Source: Nocardioides sp. (GTDB taxonomy: Bacteria; Actinomycetota; Actinomycetes; Propionibacteriales; Nocardioidaceae). From it: a stretch of 64,000 bases of DNA. The notes beneath the pieces were generated by a model. The model saw only the letters and a list, made by a program, of their open reading frames with translations, searched no databases and was not told the origin of the DNA. Positions 35,665-45,216 of the stretch are shown here, in pieces. How positions within the stretch are numbered: position 1 is the stretch's first letter; each line of letters starts with the position of its first letter. Made by a program: the position numbers and the translations under genes. The DNA is taken from the NCBI RefSeq assembly GCF_036267815.1, contig NZ_DATAVI010000065.1:20383-84382 (forward strand). The letters run 5' to 3'.

Positions 35665-36921
35665 TCAGGAGAGTCGTCCGATCTTCAGGCTTGCCTCGCC
35701 GAAGTCCACGACGGCACCCGTGCCGTCGAGCAAGGTCACGCGCAGCCCGATCACCGCGATGCCGTTGTGGGTCCGGGTCACCACCGAGCGTTCGAACTTG
35801 GCCACGCCCGGGATCTCCAGCACTCCGGTCTTCGGGAAGGTCTGCTTCTGGCCCGCCACGGTGACGGTGCCCAGCTGCGTGCCCGTGGTCGACTTGGTGA
35901 CCTTCTTGCCGTGCCGGGTGACGGAGACCTTGCCGACAACGCCCTTGATCACCACCTGGCCACCCAGGCTCACCCGCCCGACCGACGCCCGGGACATGCC
36001 GTGGGCAGAGTCCGTGCCCTGGTTGCCGCGCTCGCTGGAGTTCGCGTTCTGGAAGAGCAGCTGGTCGGCAAGGGAGCCGTTCGCCAGGGACTTCTTCTTG
36101 AGCTTCCCGTTGGTGCCCTGGCACGGCATGTGGGTGAGCGGGTTCGGACCGCTCTCCAGGGTCCCGTCGAGAGCCGAGACGACGTGGGTCGCCGCGGCAT
36201 GTCCGCCGAAGAGTCCGCCCGTCATCCCCGAGTTCAGCTCGGCGTGGGAGTGCGCGACCTTCAGACGCGAGCCGGTCGGGATGACGTCGATGCGCAGTGC
36301 GTACGCATCGGCCAAGGACCCGGTGGCCGACTGCCGAGTCGTGTGCTGGCCGGCGTAGATCGTCGCCACGCCCGGGATCGTGAGGGGCTGGTCGGGCGTC
36401 GGCAGGGGGAAGCTCTCGGCGGGACCGATGGGCGGGGTGAAGGACAGGCCACCGACGTGGGTGGTGGTGGCGGCGTGGAAGCCTGACGCGTCGTGGGAGG
36501 CGGTCGCGCGGGAGGTGATCGCGGTCAACGCCAGCGAGCCGAGCCCGGTCTGCACCAGGTCGATCCGGCCGATCCGGTGCAGCGAGTGCGCCGCGACGAC
36601 GCCGTTCCGCGCGGACGTCCAGAGATGCGTCTTGATGTCCGACGCGGTGCCGAGACCCGGGAGGGTCGCCGTGCCGACGTCGTTCGTACGGTCGCGTCCC
36701 GCCTGGTTCGTGCAGCCGATCGCCCGCCAGCCGGAGGTGGACGACCCGCCCGGGAGCTGGCCACCGTTCAGGTGGGTGCCGTAGCCCGAGCTCTTGAACG
36801 CGAAGCTGGTGCTCCGGGACTGGCCTCCGTGGTGGGTGCCGGCGTAGGTGGGCGCGCTCGCGAGCGTGAGTCCCACGAGGGCCGGGACGACCGCCATGAC
36901 GAGGGTTCTGGGGGGTTTCAT
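35665..36921 (-). CDS. Secreted beta-rich protein with internal duplication (choice-of-anchor P-like)
   Basis: Signal peptide (TYA); two related halves each containing C(T/Q)xxxG and T(I/L)PG(V/L). Confidence 0.75.
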   Translation of the reverse strand: MKPPRTLVMAVVPALVGLTLASAPTYAGTHHGGQSRSTSFAFKSSGYGTHLNGGQLPGGSSTSGWRAIGCTNQAGRDRTNDVGTATLPGLGTASDIKTHLWTSARNGVVAAHSLHRIGRIDLVQTGLGSLALTAITSRATASHDASGFHAATTTHVGGLSFTPPIGPAESFPLPTPDQPLTIPGVATIYAGQHTTRQSATGSLADAYALRIDVIPTGSRLKVAHSHAELNSGMTGGLFGGHAAATHVVSALDGTLESGPNPLTHMPCQGTNGKLKKKSLANGSLADQLLFQNANSSERGNQGTDSAHGMSRASVGRVSLGGQVVIKGVVGKVSVTRHGKKVTKSTTGTQLGTVTVAGQKQTFPKTGVLEIPGVAKFERSVVTRTHNGIAVIGLRVTLLDGTGAVVDFGEASLKIGRLS

Positions 36922-37128: not shown

Positions 37129-37184
37129 GTCATCTGTGGTCCGCGCTCTGGCGGTGTCGTCCGCGCCGGGAGTTGGATGACGAC

Positions 37185-38747
37185 ATGCAGACCGTGACCG
37201 TGGGCGTGGGCCCGGTGTCCTTCGAGGACGTCGTGGCGGTGGCCAGAGGCGGGGCAGGCGTCGAGGTGGGGCTCGACGCTCTGGTCGCCATCGACCGGGC
37301 CCGGGCGGTGGTCGAGGAGCTGGCCGCGGCGCCCGTGCCGGCGTACGGCATCTCGACCGGGTTCGGCGCGCTCGCCACCCGGCACATCCCGGCAGAGCTG
37401 CGCGAGCAGCTCCAGCGCTCGCTGATCCGGTCGCACGCCGCGGGCTCGGGCCCCGAGGTCGAGCGCGAGGTCGTGCGCGGGCTGATGCTGCTGCGGCTCT
37501 CGACACTCGCGACCGGCCACACCGGCGTGCGCCGGGAGACGGCGCAGCTGATGGCGGCGCTGCTCACGGCCCAGATCACGCCGGTGGTCCGCGAGTACGG
37601 CTCGCTCGGCTGCTCCGGCGACCTCGCACCGCTCGCGCACTGCGCGCTGGCGTTGATGGGCGAGGGCGAGGTCCGCGACGGGTCAGCACGGCTCATGCCC
37701 ACGGCCGACGCGCTGGCCGCGGCCGGCCTCGCGCCGGTGCGGCTCGGCGCCAAGGAGGGGCTCGCCCTGATCAACGGGACCGACGGGATGCTGGCGATGT
37801 TGGTGCTCGCGATCACCGACCTCCGCAGGCTCCTGCGCACGGCCGACATCGCGGCGGCGATCAGCGTCGAGGCCCAGCTGGGCACCGACCGGGTGTTCGC
37901 CGCCGAGCTCCAGGCGCTGAGACCCCAGGTGGGGCAAGGGCTCTCGGCGGCCAACCTCACCCGCGTGCTCGCGGGCTCGGGCGTGATGGCACATCATCGC
38001 GACGACAGGTTCCATCGGGTGCAGGACGCCTACTCGCTGCGCTGTACGCCGCAGGTCCACGGCGCGGCTCGCGACACGGTGGAGCATGCCGCCGTCGTCG
38101 CCGGTCGCGAGCTCCGGGCCGCGGTCGACAACCCGGTCGTCCTGGCCGAGGAGGGCCGCGTCGAGTCCAACGGCAACTTCCACGGCGCACCGGTGGCCTA
38201 TGTCCTGGACTTCCTGGCGATCGTGGCCGCGGACGTCGCCTCGATCTCCGAACGACGCAGCGACCGGTTCCTCGACCGCTCGCGCAACCACGACCTCCCG
38301 CCGTTCCTCGCCGACGACCCCGGCGTCGACAGCGGCCTGATGATCGCCCAGTACACCCAGGCGGCGATCGTCTCCGAGCTCAAACGGCTGGCCGTGCCGG
38401 CGAGCGTCGACTCGATCCCCTCCAGTGCGATGCAGGAGGACCACGTCTCCATGGGGTGGAGCGCCGCCCGCAAGCTGCGCCGCTCGGTCGACGGGCTCAC
38501 CCGGGTGGTGGCCATCGAGCTGATGACGGCGGCCCGCGGCCTCCAGCTGCGCACGACGGCCGGCGACACCGCGGGCACCAGTCCCGCACCCGCCACGGGG
38601 GCCGTCGTACGCCTGCTTCGTGAGCACGGCGTCGGAGCGCCCGGCCCCGACCGCTTCCTCTCGCCCGAGATCGAGACAGCCGTCGCGCTGGTCGACTCGG
38701 GCGCCGTCCTGACCGCCGTCGACGATGTGATCGGAGAGCTGAGCTGA
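37185..38747 (+). CDS. hutH: Histidine ammonia-lyase
   Basis: [17 protein letters not shown] (MIO), [20 protein letters not shown]. Confidence 0.95.
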
Positions 38748-40420
38748 TGGTCTCGACAAGCTCGACCAACGACAGACTGCCCATCCATGCCCCGCATGGC
38801 ACCGAGCTGTCCGCCAAGTCCTGGCAGACCGAGGCGCCGCTGCGGATGCTGATGAACAACCTCGACCCCGAGGTGGCCGAGCGGCCGGAGGACCTCGTGG
38901 TCTACGGCGGCACCGGGAAGGCCGCCCGCACCTGGCCGGCGTACGACGCGATCCTGGCCAGCCTGCGCGACCTGGAGGACGACGAGACGCTGCTCGTGCA
39001 GTCTGGCAAGCCGGTCGGGATCATGCGGACCAACGAGTGGGCGCCCCGGGTGCTGATCGCGAACTCCAACCTGGTCGGCGACTGGGCCAACTGGGAGGAG
39101 TTCCGCAAGCTCGACGAGATGGGCCTGATCATGTACGGCCAGATGACGGCCGGGTCGTGGATCTACATCGGCACCCAGGGGATCCTCCAGGGCACGTTCG
39201 AGACGTTCGCCGCCGTGGCCGACAAGCGCTTCGGCGGCACGCTGGCCGGCACGATCACGGTCACCGCGGGGCTCGGCGGCATGGGCGGGGCGCAGCCGCT
39301 CGCGGTCACCATGAACGACGGCGTCGCGATCTGCATCGACGTCGACCAGTCGCGGATCACCCGGCGCATCGAGCACCGCTACCTCGACGAGCAGGCCGAC
39401 TCGCTGGCGGACGCGGTACGCCGCGCGGTCGAGGCCCGCGACGCCAGGCGGCCACTCTCGATCGGCGTGCTCGGCAACGCCGCGGAGCTGCTGCCCGCGC
39501 TGCTGGAGATGAAGGCGCCGATCGACATCGCCACCGACCAGACCTCCGCCCACGACCCGCTGTCGTACCTGCCGGTCGGCGTTCCCTTCGAGGACTGGCA
39601 CGACGCCGCCGACAAGGACCCGAAGGGGTTCACCAAGGACGCCCAGGCCTCGATGGCCGCCCACGTGCGGGCGATGGTGGAGCTCCAGGACGCCGGCGCC
39701 GAGGTCTTCGACTACGGCAACTCGATCCGCGACGAGGCCCGCAAGGGCGGCTACGACCGGGCCTTCGAGTTCCCCGGCTTCGTGCCGGCCTACATCCGGC
39801 CGCTCTTCTGCGAGGGCAAGGGCCCGTTCCGCTGGGCGGCCCTCTCGGGCGACCCCGCCGACATCGCGGCCACGGACCGCGCGATCCTCGAGCTCTTCCC
39901 CGACAACGACCGGCTCCGGAAGTGGATCACCATGGCCGGGGAGCGGGTCCACTACCAGGGCCTGCCCGCGCGGATCTGCTGGCTGGGCTACGGCGAGCGC
40001 CACCTCGCGGGTCTGAAGTTCAACGAGATGGTCCGCTCCGGTGAGCTGAGGGCGCCGATCGTGATCGGTCGCGACCATCTCGACTGCGGGTCGGTCGCCT
40101 CGCCGTACCGCGAGACCGAGGCGATGCTCGACGGCTCGGACGCGATCGCCGACTGGGCGGTCCTCAACGCCCTGGTCAACACCGCCTCCGGAGCGTCGTG
40201 GGTCTCGTTCCACCACGGCGGCGGGGTCGGGATGGGCCGCTCGCTGCACGCCGGCCAGGTCTGCGTCGCCGACGGCACCGACCTGGCGGCGGCGAAGATC
40301 GAGCGGGTCCTGACCAACGACCCCGGGATGGGCGTCATCCGGCACGTCGACGCCGGCTACGACCGGGCGGTCGAGGTCGCCGAGCAGCGCGGCGTTCGCA
40401 TCCCGATGGCCGACGCCTGA
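38747..40420 (+). CDS. hutU: Urocanate hydratase
   Basis: [32 protein letters not shown]. Confidence 0.97.
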
Positions 40421-40550
40421 GCCGGTCCAGGTCCAGGCGGACCCGCCGGTTCGCGGGCGACTGTCAGGTGCCAGACAGCCAGGAGCGCTCGATGCGGGGC
40501 AGGCTCCTGCTCTCGCCGCGCCGCGGCGTCCACCGAGCCGAGGAGTAGCC

Positions 40551-40961
40551 ATGAGCCGCATCGCCCGCCGCATCGTCGGAACCGTTGTCGCCGTTGTCGC
40601 CGTTGTCGCCGTCGTCGCCGGGACGGTGGCGCTCGGGGCGCCGGCCCAGGCCGACGTGTCGGCATCGATCGCGTGGTACGACGGTCCCGACTACGCGGTC
40701 ATCCAACTGGACCAGGCTGCGCTCGAAGGGGTCCTCAACTACTCCGACGGCCTGGAGTACGGCGTCGACGACCTCGCCAACCAGATCACCGACTACATCA
40801 ACGGGAAGCGCCTGGACCGCCACTACGACACCGGCCTCGCGCACGGCGACTTCCTCCGGTTCGAGATCGACTGCGTGCACCACCGCACGCGCAATCCCGT
40901 CCAGATCATGGTGTACGCCGACCTCAGCTACGGCTGCGGCACCTACGGGCCCGAGGTCTAG
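40551..40961 (+). CDS. Small secreted protein of unknown family, paralog A
   Basis: RBS GAGGAG; Sec signal ending AQA; GVDDL and VYADLSYGC motifs shared with B and C. Confidence 0.85.
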   Translation: MSRIARRIVGTVVAVVAVVAVVAGTVALGAPAQADVSASIAWYDGPDYAVIQLDQAALEGVLNYSDGLEYGVDDLANQITDYINGKRLDRHYDTGLAHGDFLRFEIDCVHHRTRNPVQIMVYADLSYGCGTYGPEV

Positions 40962-41121
40962 GGAAGTGCTGATCAATATCGCCGTCGCGAGCGTCGCGAC
41001 GCCTGTGCGATGGCAAGCCGCGGTCGCGACGGCAGGCTGGGTGCACGTCGAGCGGCTGCCACGCAGCCGGCGTCCGCGCATCGCGGCGCGCAGCAGGCCG
41101 GACTGGTCAGGGCTCCCCTGG
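40958..41121. mobile_element. 164-bp MITE with ~19-bp terminal inverted repeats CTAGGGAAGTGCTGATCA
   Basis: Left TIR intact, right TIR decayed (ACTGGTCAGGGCTCCCCTGG); the CTAG supplies the stop of paralog A. Confidence 0.85.
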
Positions 41122-41395
41122 TGCCGCGGGCACCGAGTCATCGAACGGTTGCGCGACGCCGAGCCGCGCACGTCGCTGCGTCGACATCGCCTGGATGCCG
41201 GGGTCGCCCGTGCACTCCCGCGCACCCCAGGGTGTGCGCCGACCTCGCCTGCGGCCGCGGAACCGCTGGCTGGTGCTGCCCAGCAAACGGAGACGGTCGA
41301 CCCGCTGTGTCAGGAGCGCGACGGCGACCCGACTGCCGGCGGGGCAGGCTCGTGCTCGTGCCGCAGAGAGTGGCCCGTAGAGCCGAGGAGAGTCC

Positions 41396-41794
41396 ATGAA
41401 CCGCATCGCCTGCCGGATCGCCACCATCACGGTCACCGCGGTCTCTGCCCTGGCCGCCGTGCTGGCCTTCGGGTCGCCGGCCCACGCTGACCCGACGGCA
41501 ACTGCCACCTTCACCTGGATGGGAGACGGCGCCGACTACGCCGTCGTCCAGCTGAACGAGGAGGCCGTGAGGTCGGCCACCGACTACGACGCCGGCCTCG
41601 GATGGGCCGTCGACGACCTCTGTGGCCAGATCACCGACGTCCTCAACGGGCATCGTCAGTCCAGGGGCTACACGGTCGGACTCGCGACGAGCGACTGCAT
41701 CGCGATCTGGCGCCACTGCGTGGCGATCCGTTCGAACAACCGCGTGCAGTTCAGCGTGTTCGCCGACCTCACCTACCGGTGCGGCCAGTACTAG
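41396..41794 (+). CDS. Small secreted protein of unknown family, paralog B
   Basis: RBS GAGGAG; signal ending AHA; four Cys in the mature part. Confidence 0.85.
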   Translation: MNRIACRIATITVTAVSALAAVLAFGSPAHADPTATATFTWMGDGADYAVVQLNEEAVRSATDYDAGLGWAVDDLCGQITDVLNGHRQSRGYTVGLATSDCIAIWRHCVAIRSNNRVQFSVFADLTYRCGQY

Positions 41795-41952
41795 TGCGTC
41801 TCCCGATCGCGCGCGCCTGCTGCCCGGGATCTCCCATCGGAGCTGGCTGCGGTGTCAGCGCTCGTCGGCCTCCAGCCCGCCTTCGCGCCGCCGCCTTGCC
41901 AGATCGGCGCGAAGTCCCGCTCGCTACGGCGCCGAGACGGTCGCGCAACTAG
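41791..41952. mobile_element. Decayed MITE copy abutting the next copy through a shared CTAG
   Basis: Shares GCTGGCTGCG, GCCTTGCC and CGCTCGCtACGGCGCCG with 41949-42112; bounded by CTAG at both ends. Confidence 0.65.
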
Positions 41953-42112
41953 GGAAGCGCTGATCAGTCCCGTCTGCTGCGCGCCGCGATGCGGGCACGC
42001 TGGCTGCGTTGCAGCCGCTCGACGTGCGCCCGGCATGGCGTCGCGACCGCGCCTTGCCGTCGCACACCCGTCGCGGCGCTCGCGACGGCGCCGTTGATCA
42101 GCACTTCCCTAG
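41949..42112. mobile_element. Intact 164-bp MITE, inverted relative to the 40958 copy
   Basis: CTAGGGAAGCGCTGATCA ... TGATCAGCACTTCCCTAG. Confidence 0.9.
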
Positions 42113-42300
42113 CGTCCGCGCCCGTCCACTCGCGCTCTCCCGCCCAGACGCAGAGGGGCAGCACCAGGGCCTCGGGGGGATCGCCCCGCGGCCAGGTTCG
42201 TGGTGACTGTCAGGCGGAGGACAGCGGCAGACCCCGGGTGCCGGGCAGGCTCCTACCGACGCCGTACCTGCGGCGCCGACACAGAACCCGAGGAGGAGCC

Positions 42301-42693
42301 ATGAGCCGCATCGCCCGCCGCATCGCCGGCACCGTCGTCCCCGTCGTCGCCGCCGTTGCCGCGCTCGTGGCGTTCGGGGCACCCGCGCAGGCCGCGGCCA
42401 CCGCGTCGCTCGCCTGGCAGGACGGCCCGGACTTCGCGATCATCCAGCTGAACCCGGAGGCCGTGGACGCCGTCGCCTGGTACAACGTCGTCGGCCAGCC
42501 TGGCGTCGACGACCTGTGCAACCAGATCGACGGCGTGGTCAACGCCAAGCGGTTCGACAAGGGGTACGCCACCGGCCTCGACCTGGGGATGTGCGTCGGG
42601 TTCATGAAGGACTGCGTGGCCAAGAGGAGCAACGATCGGGTCCAGATCGACGTGTACGCCGACCTGACCTACCGGTGCAGCACCTACGCCTGA
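42301..42693 (+). CDS. Small secreted protein of unknown family, paralog C
   Basis: RBS GAGGAGG; signal ending AQA; four Cys; VYADLTYRC. Confidence 0.85.
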   Translation: MSRIARRIAGTVVPVVAAVAALVAFGAPAQAAATASLAWQDGPDFAIIQLNPEAVDAVAWYNVVGQPGVDDLCNQIDGVVNAKRFDKGYATGLDLGMCVGFMKDCVAKRSNDRVQIDVYADLTYRCSTYA

Positions 42694-42811
42694 GACCGGC
42701 CCCGAGCCCGGGGCTGTGGCCTCGCCGACTGTCTCGTGGGGCCTCCTGCCACAAGCCCGTTGACCCTGCCAGGCAGGGGGTTCGGCGCCGACCGGTGGCG
42801 CGAGGCCCGAC

Positions 42812-44554
42812 TCAGGCCAGTGGCAGCAGGGCGTGGACGGCGAAGCCCTGCTCGCCACCGAGGACCGTGACCGCGCCGCCGACCTCGGCGGCGCGTTCGC
42901 GCATCGAGCTGATGCCGACGCCCGGCGTCCATGGCTGACCGTGCAGGCCCGGGTCGCGGACCGCGACCGACAGCCGCCCGTCGTCCACGCCGATGCACAG
43001 GTCGGCCTCGTCGGCGCCACTGTGCCGAGCCGCGTTGGCGAGCGCCTCCGTCGCGATCCGGTACGCCGCGGTCTCGACCGCCGCCGGCAGCTCGGGCAGG
43101 GCATCGGGCACCTCGACCGAGACCCGCATCGAGCGCCCGTCGTCGGTGCGCATCGAGGCGGCCCGCTGGCGAAGCGCCGGCACGAGGCCGAGCTCGTCGA
43201 GGGCCGGCGGTCGCATGTCGTAGACGAGCCGCCGGATCTCCCCGACCGCGGTCACCGCGTCGGCACGGAGTCCTCGCAGCAGCTCGTCGGCCGAGTCGGG
43301 CTGGTCGCGCAGCGTGTTGCGCGCCGCGTCCGCGGTGAAGGCGATCCCGGACAGGGTGGGCCCGAGTCCGTCGTGCAGGTCGCGTCGCAGGCGGCGGCGT
43401 TCCTCCTCGATGGCCGCGATCGCCTGGCCGCGCGAGGTCTGGAGGTCCGCGGCGAGCGCGCGGGCGCGCAGGGTCTGGGCCAGCAGCGGCGCCACGATCC
43501 GCAGCACGTGCTCGTCACCGGCCGACAGGCTCAGGTCGCCCTGACGCAGCCCGACGACGATCTCGCCCAGGTCGTCGCTACCCAGCTGGAGGGCGAGCCG
43601 GCGCAGATGGGTGACGGCGGTGCCTGAGGAGGCCAGCTCGACCCCACCGGACCAGACGCTGGCATAGGGCAGCACCAGCGCCTCGCGGATCGCCCGCAGC
43701 GCCAGCACCGGGTCGTCGCCGATCCGGTCGACGACGCGGGCCGCCGCGTCGAGCGGGTCGGGGCGGTCCCCGAACAACAGCTCGTCGATGACACCGCGCA
43801 GCATCACCCGCAGCGGATGGAACGTCGTGGCGGCCAGCGCGCCGATCGCGGCCAGGACGCCGACGGAGGGCTCGTGCTGCCCGGCGAGGTCGAGGACCGA
43901 CACCGCCCCGATGAACAGGGACAGGTACACCGACACCACGATCACGACGACGACCACCGAGACGATGAGCCCACGGACGTCGACCAGGCGCGGCCGGAGG
44001 ACACCCACGGCCAGGCCCGGCCCCACCGTGGCGATCAGCACTGAGCCGACCACGAGGGCGACCCGGGTCGTGGTCAGGAACACCAGCTGCCCGGTGACGA
44101 GCCCGGACGTGACACTGACCAGGCTCACCCACAGCACCGCGAGCCGGTCGTCCTCGTCGGCCGCCTCGAAGCGCCACCACAGGTGCCCGAAGAGGCCGAG
44201 GAGGCTCATCAGGCCCATGGTCGAGAGCACCGACCAGTCAGGCCGGGTGGTCGCGATCACCCCGGCCCCGAGGACGACGACGTAGGCGCAGAAGTCCACG
44301 CCGTGCCAGCCGCGCGGTGAGGGATAGGTCAGCAGGGCCAGGGCTCCTGGCAGCATCAGCGACGCGGTGAGGGCGACGGCACCCACGTGCGGATGGCCGG
44401 TCCCCCACGCCGTCAGCGCCGCAAGGGTGCCGACCCCGCAGACGACGGCCCAGACACCGGCGACCCGCGCCCGGGTCGGCCACAGGGACACGCCTCCGGC
44501 GACCAGCGTCGCCACCGGCAGCACCGCGGCGGCGAGCGGCAGTCCGTCGTTCAC
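42812..44554 (-). CDS. Membrane sensor histidine kinase (HisKA_3/NarX type)
   Basis: ERRRLRRDLHDG H-box; EALANAARH; GVGISSMRER. Confidence 0.9.
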   Translation of the reverse strand: MNDGLPLAAAVLPVATLVAGGVSLWPTRARVAGVWAVVCGVGTLAALTAWGTGHPHVGAVALTASLMLPGALALLTYPSPRGWHGVDFCAYVVVLGAGVIATTRPDWSVLSTMGLMSLLGLFGHLWWRFEAADEDDRLAVLWVSLVSVTSGLVTGQLVFLTTTRVALVVGSVLIATVGPGLAVGVLRPRLVDVRGLIVSVVVVVIVVSVYLSLFIGAVSVLDLAGQHEPSVGVLAAIGALAATTFHPLRVMLRGVIDELLFGDRPDPLDAAARVVDRIGDDPVLALRAIREALVLPYASVWSGGVELASSGTAVTHLRRLALQLGSDDLGEIVVGLRQGDLSLSAGDEHVLRIVAPLLAQTLRARALAADLQTSRGQAIAAIEEERRRLRRDLHDGLGPTLSGIAFTADAARNTLRDQPDSADELLRGLRADAVTAVGEIRRLVYDMRPPALDELGLVPALRQRAASMRTDDGRSMRVSVEVPDALPELPAAVETAAYRIATEALANAARHSGADEADLCIGVDDGRLSVAVRDPGLHGQPWTPGVGISSMRERAAEVGGAVTVLGGEQGFAVHALLPLA

Positions 44555-45216
44555 CCGGCGCCCCCGACGCCACCCTGGTGGGCGCGCACGATGGCCTCGG
44601 CGCGTCCGGAGACCTGGAGCTTGGCGAAGATCGTGGTCAGGTTGTTGGCCACGGTCTTGGGCGAGAGGAAGAGGTCGGTGCCGATCTCGGAGGTACGTCG
44701 TCCCCGCGCCAGCCGCTCCAGGATCTCGCGCTCGCGCGCAGTGAGCTCGGGGAACGGGTAGGCCGCGGCGGCCGGCCGGGGCGGCCCGGCGAAGTGGCCG
44801 AGGACGCGCTCGGCGACGCCGGGACCGAAGATGGCCTCGCCGGCGACGACCCCGCGGATGGCGCGGACGATGTCCGCCTGCTCCGCCTCCTTGAGCAGGT
44901 ACCCCTGGGCGCCGGCCTGCATCGCGGTGAAGACCGTCGCGTCGTCGTCGTACATCGTGAGCATCAGGACCCGTGTGGACGGCGCCGCCGCCCGGATGCG
45001 CCGAGTCGCCTCGACCCCGTCGAGCCCGGGCATCCGCACGTCCATCAGGACGACGTCGGGTCGGGTGAGCTGGGCCTCGCGCACGGCGGCCTCCCCGTCG
45101 GCCGCCTCGCCGACGACCTCGAGCCCGTCGATGGTGCGCAGCAGGGCGACGAGCCCGCCCCGCACAACGGGGTGGTCGTCGGCCACGACGATCCGGATCG
45201 TCGCGCTGGGCTCCAT
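44551..45216 (-). CDS. NarL/LuxR family response regulator
   Basis: ADDH, LMDVRMP, GYLLK; C-terminal HTH. Confidence 0.95.
   Translation of the reverse strand: MEPSATIRIVVADDHPVVRGGLVALLRTIDGLEVVGEAADGEAAVREAQLTRPDVVLMDVRMPGLDGVEATRRIRAAAPSTRVLMLTMYDDDATVFTAMQAGAQGYLLKEAEQADIVRAIRGVVAGEAIFGPGVAERVLGHFAGPPRPAAAAYPFPELTAREREILERLARGRRTSEIGTDLFLSPKTVANNLTTIFAKLQVSGRAEAIVRAHQGGVGGAG

Follow-up and report, generated by a model that had tools for sequence, protein, structure and literature searches.

Three fast-diverging tandem paralogs with predicted signal peptides beside hutU in a Nocardioides genome

The gene array and its family

The stretch of DNA analysed here, called the window below, covers 64,000 nucleotides of contig NZ_DATAVI010000065.1 in the assembly of a Nocardioides sp. 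(GCF_036267815.1). Directly after the urocanase gene hutU it contains a tandem array of three genes, A, B and C, which encode small proteins with predicted signal peptides (Table 1). An initial annotation of the locus had placed the array at this position and had described its products as three small paralogs with shared motifs and no recognisable family, all of which was borne out. The three proteins align with 47-57% identity over their full length and 47 invariant columns, the motifs noted earlier included, and a profile built from the three sequences scores each copy at E = 1e-69 to 1e-72 in a search of the source genome. As judged from these alignments, their paralogy is far beyond chance. 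Compared with their orthologs in a close relative, the three genes have changed far faster than the genes that flank them; this local contrast and the rarity of the family are the main results of the analysis.

Homology searches with A, B and C were performed at several levels. Pfam, NCBIfam, PHROG and PADLOC returned matches at noise level only (E of at least 0.046), and no profile of a known bacteriocin, defence or phage protein family was matched in these four libraries. The inhibitor family SSI (PF00720) was absent from the Pfam matches even at E <= 1, and NCBIfam gave no SSI match. The search of PDB sequences produced no credible relative, its matches being weak or located on the signal peptide. 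A word-indexed search of 5.8 billion proteins yielded one homolog of C. A six-sequence profile compared with 1.84 billion (1.84e9) cluster representatives yielded 17 proteins, nearly all of 125-152 amino acids; two are fragments and one is a weak match on a protein of 1347 amino acids. The full-length matches combine a signal peptide with four cysteines and an invariant arginine, and the only named sources are Nocardioides agariphilus and a Nocardioides metagenome-assembled genome (MAG). In 60 relatives the three-sequence profile missed all distant members, and pattern-based scans of genome and metagenome contig collections with the family alignments found no relative. About 25 sequences are known here in total; as seen through these searches, the family is very rare, orphan and centred on Nocardioides.

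Table 1. Coordinates of the array, its upstream elements and its neighbours (positions in the window)
Feature	Position	Strand	Basis or remark
hutH	37173-38747	+	Lyase_aromatic Pfam label on the identical gene in contigs L075/L072
hutU (urocanase), conserved left anchor	38747-40420	+	open reading frame (ORF); Urocanase Pfam label on the identical L075/L072 gene; 98% amino acid identity to relative
Operator-like site of A, TGTCAGGTGCCAGACA (TGTCA-N6-nGACA)	40462-40477	+	motif comparison
GGGCAGGCT of A; putative -10 CAGGCT at 40500-40505, 38 nt after operator start	40497-40505	+	
CCGAGGAG ribosome-binding site of A	40538-40545	+	
Gene A, 136 amino acids	40551-40961	+	ORF, paralog alignment
Miniature inverted-repeat transposable element (MITE), copy 1	40958-41122	-	87% identical to copy 2; site empty in relative (L072)
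Possible remnant (decayed 3' end) of a fourth family gene	41205-41270	+	RPCTPAHPRVCADLACGRGTAG compared with RTRNPVQIMVYADLSYGCGTYG; weak (tblastn E = 0.011)
Operator-like site of B, TGTCAGGAGCGCGACG	41308-41323	+	
GGGCAGGCT of B; putative -10 CAGGCT at 41345-41350, 37 nt after operator start	41342-41350	+	
CCGAGGAG ribosome-binding site of B	41383-41390	+	
Gene B, 132 amino acids, four mature Cys	41396-41794	+	ORF, paralog alignment
MITE, copy 2	41949-42112	+	18-bp terminal inverted repeat; hairpin -103.9 kcal/mol
Operator-like site of C, TGTCAGGCGGAGGACA	42208-42223	+	
GGGCAGGCT of C; putative -10 CAGGCT at 42246-42251, 38 nt after operator start	42243-42251	+	
CCGAGGAG ribosome-binding site of C	42288-42295	+	
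Gene C, 130 amino acids, four mature Cys; protein modelled	42301-42693	+	ORF, paralog alignment
Multi-pass membrane histidine kinase (HisKA_3), convergent with C	42812-44554	-	ORF, Pfam label
NarL/GerE-type response regulator, partner of the kinase	44551-45216	-	Pfam label

Genomic positions and distribution

Members of the family recur at two genomic positions. The first, directly after hutH-hutU, is occupied in the window, in a near-identical metagenome twin (contig L075), in the relative (contig L072) and in N. agariphilus, whose two members after hutU show ~25% identity to A-C. The second, beside rodA or in the neighbouring MFS/BenE slot, is occupied in five organisms, including the source genome with two copies, genome G102, a Nocardioides MAG and metagenome contig L088; contig L089 has the gene order of the rodA locus, with neighbours that bear no Pfam label. 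The two paralogs at the rodA locus of the source genome stand in tandem (128 and 125 amino acids, C64:29852-30866, corresponding to L004:828-1863 on the minus strand). They share the four-cysteine spacing of the family, have near-identical signal peptides and diverged mature parts, and are each preceded by their own operator and -10 module. This locus adjoins the cell-wall elongation genes rodA, PBP2 and mreBCD.

A profile of 18 sequences gave a single real match (G102) in 150 genomes of the genus, the others covering the signal peptide only, and none in 400 sampled genomes of the taxonomic family. Within 3 kb of hutU, 80 named genomes contain no member of the family, and no small ORF with a signal peptide and four cysteines was found downstream of rodA in 29 other genomes of the genus. 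The idea that relatives do have orthologs at rodA and hutU, hidden by extreme divergence, was rejected, as no small ORF with these two features is present there. Most of the genus has no ortholog and no housekeeping family is matched, so that neither of the two findings that would contradict the initial annotation was made.

The hutU gene of the window is closest to those of Marmoricola and Nocardioides genomes (85-87% identity). In close relatives the genes after hutU vary until an M48 peptidase is reached, and because of this variation between two fixed neighbours we consider that A-B-C and the adjoining two-component system occupy a variable hotspot. In other members of the genus (loci L046, L051, L052 and L068) an unrelated ORF of ~320-370 amino acids, with the motif 'VWPVEADPTGRTGPTPGAARGP...', stands in the position of A/B/C.

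Signal peptides, cysteines and predicted fold

The N-terminus of A, B and C has the form M-x-R-I-A-R-R, followed by a hydrophobic stretch of 15-20 residues and an AxA site. A basic n-region, a hydrophobic h-region and an AxA cleavage site can be read in all 24 members, and in the PDB-sequence search the N-terminus of the profile aligns solely to signal peptides of PDB proteins. These features, which agree with the Sec signals of the initial annotation, point to a Sec-type signal peptide throughout the family and suggest that its members are exported. A pair of arginines is nearly invariant in the family signal peptides. Export by the twin-arginine (Tat) route was rejected, as the PF10518 and TIGR01409 profiles are not matched and the h-region is strongly hydrophobic; a small doubt is left on this call by MelC1 and methyl parathion hydrolase, whose Tat leaders are weakly similar. 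Lipoproteins and wall-anchored proteins were rejected as well, since no member has a cysteine near the AxA site or a C-terminal LPXTG motif, and wall-binding repeats are not visible either. The signal peptide of A contains three copies of the 9-nt unit GTTGTCGCC (VVA x3, 40585-40611). Metagenome contig L075, otherwise 100% identical, has two units (protein P0007) against three in A; the number of units is polymorphic, and the repeat lies in the hydrophobic core of this signal peptide.

The count of four cysteines in the mature parts of B and C made in the initial annotation stands, whereas the outer pair attributed to A does not: A retains the third and fourth (C108 and C129), and positions 1 and 2 are occupied by Ala and Phe. 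Across 18 members Cys3, Cys4 and one Arg are invariant, and Cys1 and Cys2 are missing in A only. A and its ortholog P0027 both lack the first two cysteines, and because of this joint loss we infer that Cys1 pairs with Cys2 and Cys3 with Cys4.

The AlphaFold2 model of C, calculated with the 18-sequence alignment, has pLDDT values of 85-97 over residues 31-130 and of ~94 for the mature part. It comprises strands 35-40 and 45-50, helices 52-64, 67-86 and 95-107, and strands 114-119 and 124-127, that is, a predicted β-β-α-α-α-β-β (β2-α3-β2) topology. The pairing proposed above implies disulfides that would connect helix 2 to helix 3 (1-2) and helix 3 to the last strand (3-4). Foldseek was as empty as the sequence libraries: for two models compared with 350,542 PDB chains the lowest E was 0.56, with TM below 0.25, and the comparison with BFVD gave a best E of 0.31, a weak match to an uncharacterised podovirus protein. 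The SSI fold consists of a five-stranded sheet with two helices; it was ruled out for A/B/C by the Foldseek search of the confident model against the PDB.

Divergence from a close relative

The orthologs of the close relative were taken from two metagenome contigs, L072 (hutH-hutU-A'-B') and L008 (C'-kinase-regulator), and the rate tests are pairwise (Table 2). In a maximum-likelihood (ML) tree A/A', B/B' and C/C' pair with bootstrap support of 95-100. Because the copies form such orthologous pairs, the triplication must predate the split from the relative, each copy having been kept since. The triplication is thus not recent. The proposal of the initial annotation that gene and promoter were duplicated together is supported.

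Table 2. Identity and substitution rates between the window and the relative
Gene	Amino acid identity	Nei-Gojobori (NG86) dN/dS (whole gene)	ML dN (mature part for A-C, whole gene for others)	ML dS (same parts)
hutH	98%	0.07	0.008	0.29
hutU	98%	0.09	0.008	0.28
A	56%	1.3	0.41	0.57
B	83%	0.85	0.069	0.28
C	62%	1.3	0.39	0.92
Kinase	96%	0.15	0.016	0.23
Regulator	98%	0.07	0.009	0.34

Inside a region 95-97% identical in DNA, protein identity falls locally to ~60%. Nucleotide alignments show that the ~110 nt upstream of the genes and the codons of the signal peptide are ~90% identical, and that substitutions and indels then fill the mature part, interrupted by conserved islands at the cysteines and the core. 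Variability peaks in loop 87-94, helix 3 and loop 108-113. The rise in dN, 25- to 50-fold for A and C, and the 10- to 25-fold rise in omega (dN/dS) are robust, and comparison of the non-synonymous to synonymous ratio of A/B/C with that of the flanking genes gives p between 1e-8 and 1e-26. The diversification announced by the initial annotation is visible in this excess of dN in the mature parts. An omega above 1 is not robust, as it depends on the method: mature-part Nei-Gojobori values are 1.9, 1.1 and 1.8 for A, B and C, with p = 0.012 in a pooled test of non-synonymous against synonymous sites, and ML values lie between 0.25 and 0.71.

The ML values would fit a reading of A, B and C as dispensable exported proteins drifting under relaxed constraint, for example minor envelope or matrix proteins that need only a folded, disulfide-braced core. 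High dN would then be near-neutral change and the patchy distribution an ongoing loss, for which the absence from ~149 of 150 genomes of the genus, from the 400 sampled family genomes and from 80 hutU loci, the disulfide lost in A, the possible decayed copy between A and B, and the MITEs and insertion sequence (IS) elements around the genes can be quoted. We nevertheless hold drift to be unlikely. All copies keep open frames, signal peptides, promoter architecture and the invariant Arg at identities down to ~25%; the cysteines are kept as well, all four outside the A lineage and Cys3/Cys4 within it; and all three paralogs predate the split from the relative and have been kept. The Nei-Gojobori omega exceeds 1, and an averaged omega includes constrained core sites, so that surface sites must be higher.

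A diversity-generating retroelement was rejected, since RVT_1 is matched nowhere in the source genome (control genomes do match) and no template-like repeat is present.

Gene C adjoins the kinase/regulator pair in the window and in the relative, an arrangement that could fit secreted ligands sensed by this HisKA_3/NarL-type two-component system in a pherotype-like manner. This we regard as very improbable. The kinase is 96% identical between the two organisms while C is 62% identical, and its 21 substitutions are conservative and scattered, with no sign of co-diversification. The linkage is moreover seen in one lineage only, and family members at the rodA locus or in N. agariphilus have no such neighbour.

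Upstream module and putative regulon

Each of A, B and C is preceded by its own copy of an upstream module of ~110 nt, composed of an operator-like site, GGGCAGGCT and CCGAGGAG (Table 1). The last two occur once per gene at fixed distances, and CCGAGGAG ends 5 nt before the ATG in all three. The initial annotation was right on the shared upstream motifs and too narrow on a third element that it restricted to A and C, since TGTCAG... is present before all three. Nearly all family genes have the operator upstream, even at ~25% protein identity. It is also found before the rodA-locus paralogs and, as close variants, before the distant members in G102 and the Nocardioides MAG, and the second N. 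agariphilus gene is preceded by CAGGCT as well.

A 16-bp consensus, TGTCANNNNNN(C/T)GACA, has been obtained by SELEX (systematic evolution of ligands by exponential enrichment) and footprinting for Cmr (Rv1675c), a mycobacterial protein of the CRP/FNR family (PMC4705688). The A and C sites have 9 of the 10 bases specified for Cmr, their right half beginning with A or G (A in gene A) and not with C/T. The B site (CGACG) and that of P0005 at the rodA locus (CGTCA...CGACA) keep the (C/T)GAC right half and have one other mismatch each. The source genome has 11 copies of the perfect palindrome TGTCA-N6-TGACA, compared with ~0.6 expected from base composition (~20-fold excess). Mycobacterial Cmr regulon promoters share the 16-bp site with the family genes and with these 11 genome sites, but belong to another organism, and in the family genes the right half of the site is degenerate (nGACA or CGACG).

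The 11 palindromes lie mostly ahead of secreted proteins or lipoproteins without known function, a GH6 hydrolase and a DUF6518 membrane protein, and also in the upstream regions of lepA, rpsA and hemW (examples of sites are C23:23768, C39:9767, C56:13126, C65:106196, C78:912, C86:85110 and C94:3078). A hexamer nAnnnT at +37/+38 is present for five of five family genes and for 10 of 22 palindrome orientations, against a background of 3.8%. With such spacing, the upstream module looks like a putative class-II activator-dependent promoter of CRP/FNR type, with the site centred ~41.5 nt upstream of the presumed start (predicted near 40512, 41357 and 42258 for A, B and C), and the palindrome set resembles a regulon under a Cmr-like CRP/FNR regulator. 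Besides a canonical CRP (C81:19257-19934), the source genome encodes a second cNMP-binding protein of the CRP family (cNMP_binding and HTH_Crp_2 domains, C39:~167920-168595), which might bind the palindrome; a perfect copy lies 1.5 kb from its gene, before lepA. A PHO-box and direct repeats of MtrA or GlnR type were dropped, the genome-wide sites being perfect palindromes TGTCA-N6-TGACA. Scans with sigma-70 promoter and terminator consensus sequences gave no match.

One palindrome lies 78 nt upstream of a gene for a secreted protein of 289 amino acids (C65:106290-107159), ~22 kb past the end of the window. It resembles the family from its signal peptide through ~45 residues of the mature part, as far as the first Cys (local E = 6e-8); the remainder is unrelated to it and matches no Pfam entry.

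Mobile elements and neighbourhood

The initial annotation reported MITEs between the copies, and elements of 165 bp are indeed found after A and after B. They measure 164-165 bp and have 18-bp terminal inverted repeats, CTAGGGAAGYGCTGATCA, that are 94% complementary; 36 matches are present in the source genome, about 14 of them full length, and the long hairpin (-103.9 kcal/mol) has z = -7. Being small, non-coding, flanked by terminal inverted repeats and dispersed in many copies, both are genuine MITEs. Their flanks and the empty site in L072 show no clear duplicated target. The stop codon TAG of gene A sits inside the terminal repeat of copy 1, which adds GPEV to the end of A relative to B and C; the L072 ortholog has a different C-terminus. 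Inverted repeats, many copies, a hairpin, the lack of coding sequence and insertion after genes are shared with gene-end elements of Correia, ERIC or REP type, from which the present MITE differs by matching no Rfam family (interval 40300-42900). In the relative, B' is followed by IS elements (rve integrase, Transposase_mut; L072:7499-8659 and L073:716-2974) in place of the MITE and C. The hutU hotspot is being rearranged by mobile DNA.

The possible remnant of a fourth gene at 41205-41270 corresponds to a repeat, D2, with 75% nucleotide identity; it lies ~130-190 nt upstream of B and is also present upstream of B' in L072. Beyond the kinase/regulator pair come a small membrane protein and then the M48 peptidase. 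Upstream of hutH and divergent from it, a gene on the minus strand (35665-36897) encodes a secreted protein of 410 amino acids without Pfam match, conserved in L075 and L072.

No immunity, transporter or phage genes are seen near A/B/C, and the neighbourhood is neither a prophage nor a defence island. The absence of such genes and the acidity of all mature proteins argue against a classical cationic bacteriocin or a prophage gene. The inhibitors, bacteriocin-like toxins, immunity proteins and phage decoys proposed by the initial annotation are candidate roles. Bacteriocin-like secreted toxins, directed at related bacteria and diversifying to escape the immunity of their targets, would be small, secreted and disulfide-stabilised, with fast evolution, several copies and a patchy distribution, all features seen or predicted here. 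Such a role appears distinctly unlikely, since no immunity gene, dedicated ABC exporter or lysis gene stands beside any copy at either conserved position, no known bacteriocin family or fold is matched, and all 24 mature proteins have an isoelectric point (pI) of 4.1-5.3, unlike most membrane-active bacteriocins. Cell-surface decoys or shields against attachment of phages or predators, diversifying alongside receptor-binding proteins, would account for a conserved leader with a hypervariable mature domain, and one of the loci lies beside rodA, PBP2 and mreBCD. With no LPXTG, lipobox or wall-binding repeat visible, no PADLOC or PHROG match and these surroundings, decoys are more doubtful still.

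Possible role of the family

Our preferred reading, held tentatively, is that A, B and C may be extracellular binding or inhibitor proteins that diversify against a fast-changing external partner. Each gene would give a protein exported through its N-terminal signal peptide; the part set free would be an acidic domain of ~95-105 residues, which two disulfides would brace (Cys1-Cys2 between helices 2 and 3, Cys3-Cys4 between helix 3 and the last strand), the A lineage having presumably lost the first. Each would be expressed from its own activator-dependent promoter (CRP/FNR-type operator, CAGGCT -10, leader of ~40 nt, GAGGAG ribosome-binding site) and, because of the common operator site, could be switched on jointly with ~ten other promoters that bear it, mostly those of secreted proteins. 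Outside the cell the products would act as stable binders or inhibitors with exposed surfaces under diversifying pressure. Secreted enzymes or toxins of competitors and phage proteins are candidate partners, and three diverged copies would widen the range of partners.

This proposal leans on a working analogy with the actinobacterial inhibitors SSI (PF00720, MEROPS I16), tendamistat, BLIP and SMPI, which are exported, have ~75-165 mature residues and two disulfides, and act as stand-alone extracellular binders. A/B/C resemble them in host group, size, predicted export and predicted number of disulfides, but differ by the lack of a sequence or PDB match, by the predicted β2-α3-β2 topology and by a family of ~25 sequences where the inhibitors are widespread. 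Their evolutionary signature is that of families of the MgCRP-I type, in which leader and cysteine framework are conserved, the mature part is hypervariable, paralogs stand in tandem and dN is raised, a pattern described for MgCRP-I (PMC4558851). The likeness is not one of homology; those families are eukaryotic and consist mostly of shorter peptides with at least three disulfides, against a bacterial α/β domain of ~100 residues here.

Several points weigh against binding or inhibition. The case for it is made up of the evolutionary pattern, the charge and the analogy, no partner gene is evident, and an acidic pI is common among actinobacterial exoproteins. The ML omega of the mature parts is below 1, with which relaxed constraint may be compatible. 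For A and C, ML dS exceeds that of the flanking genes by a factor of 2-3; part of the divergence may therefore correspond to alleles imported by recombination and not to selection in place. The orthologs on L072 and L008 stem from different samples, and the regulator is assigned by motif identity with a mycobacterial protein.

A bolder version would see in A/B/C an unseen fold of bacterial 'effector-like' extracellular proteins, with surfaces positively selected against competitor or phage proteins and deployed as a multi-allele set under a Cmr-like regulator sensing cAMP or redox state, together with other secreted proteins. We consider it rather unlikely as a whole; if true, the family would be a prokaryotic counterpart of venom families and of fungal and oomycete effector families. 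The rate acceleration is among the sharpest local ones visible between near-identical genomes, and a domain of ~100 residues, confidently modelled and without structural relative, is a concrete and cheap test case for what drives exoprotein hypervariability in free-living bacteria. Soil actinobacteria are classically known for small secreted proteins that inhibit enzymes or serve as tools in the study of microbial interactions. The common operator outlines a putative small regulon of secreted proteins and a candidate regulator in a genus whose regulation is little studied. Even if the function of A, B and C were trivial, MITEs, IS elements and duplication can be followed at this locus as they shape a variable hotspot beside a housekeeping operon.

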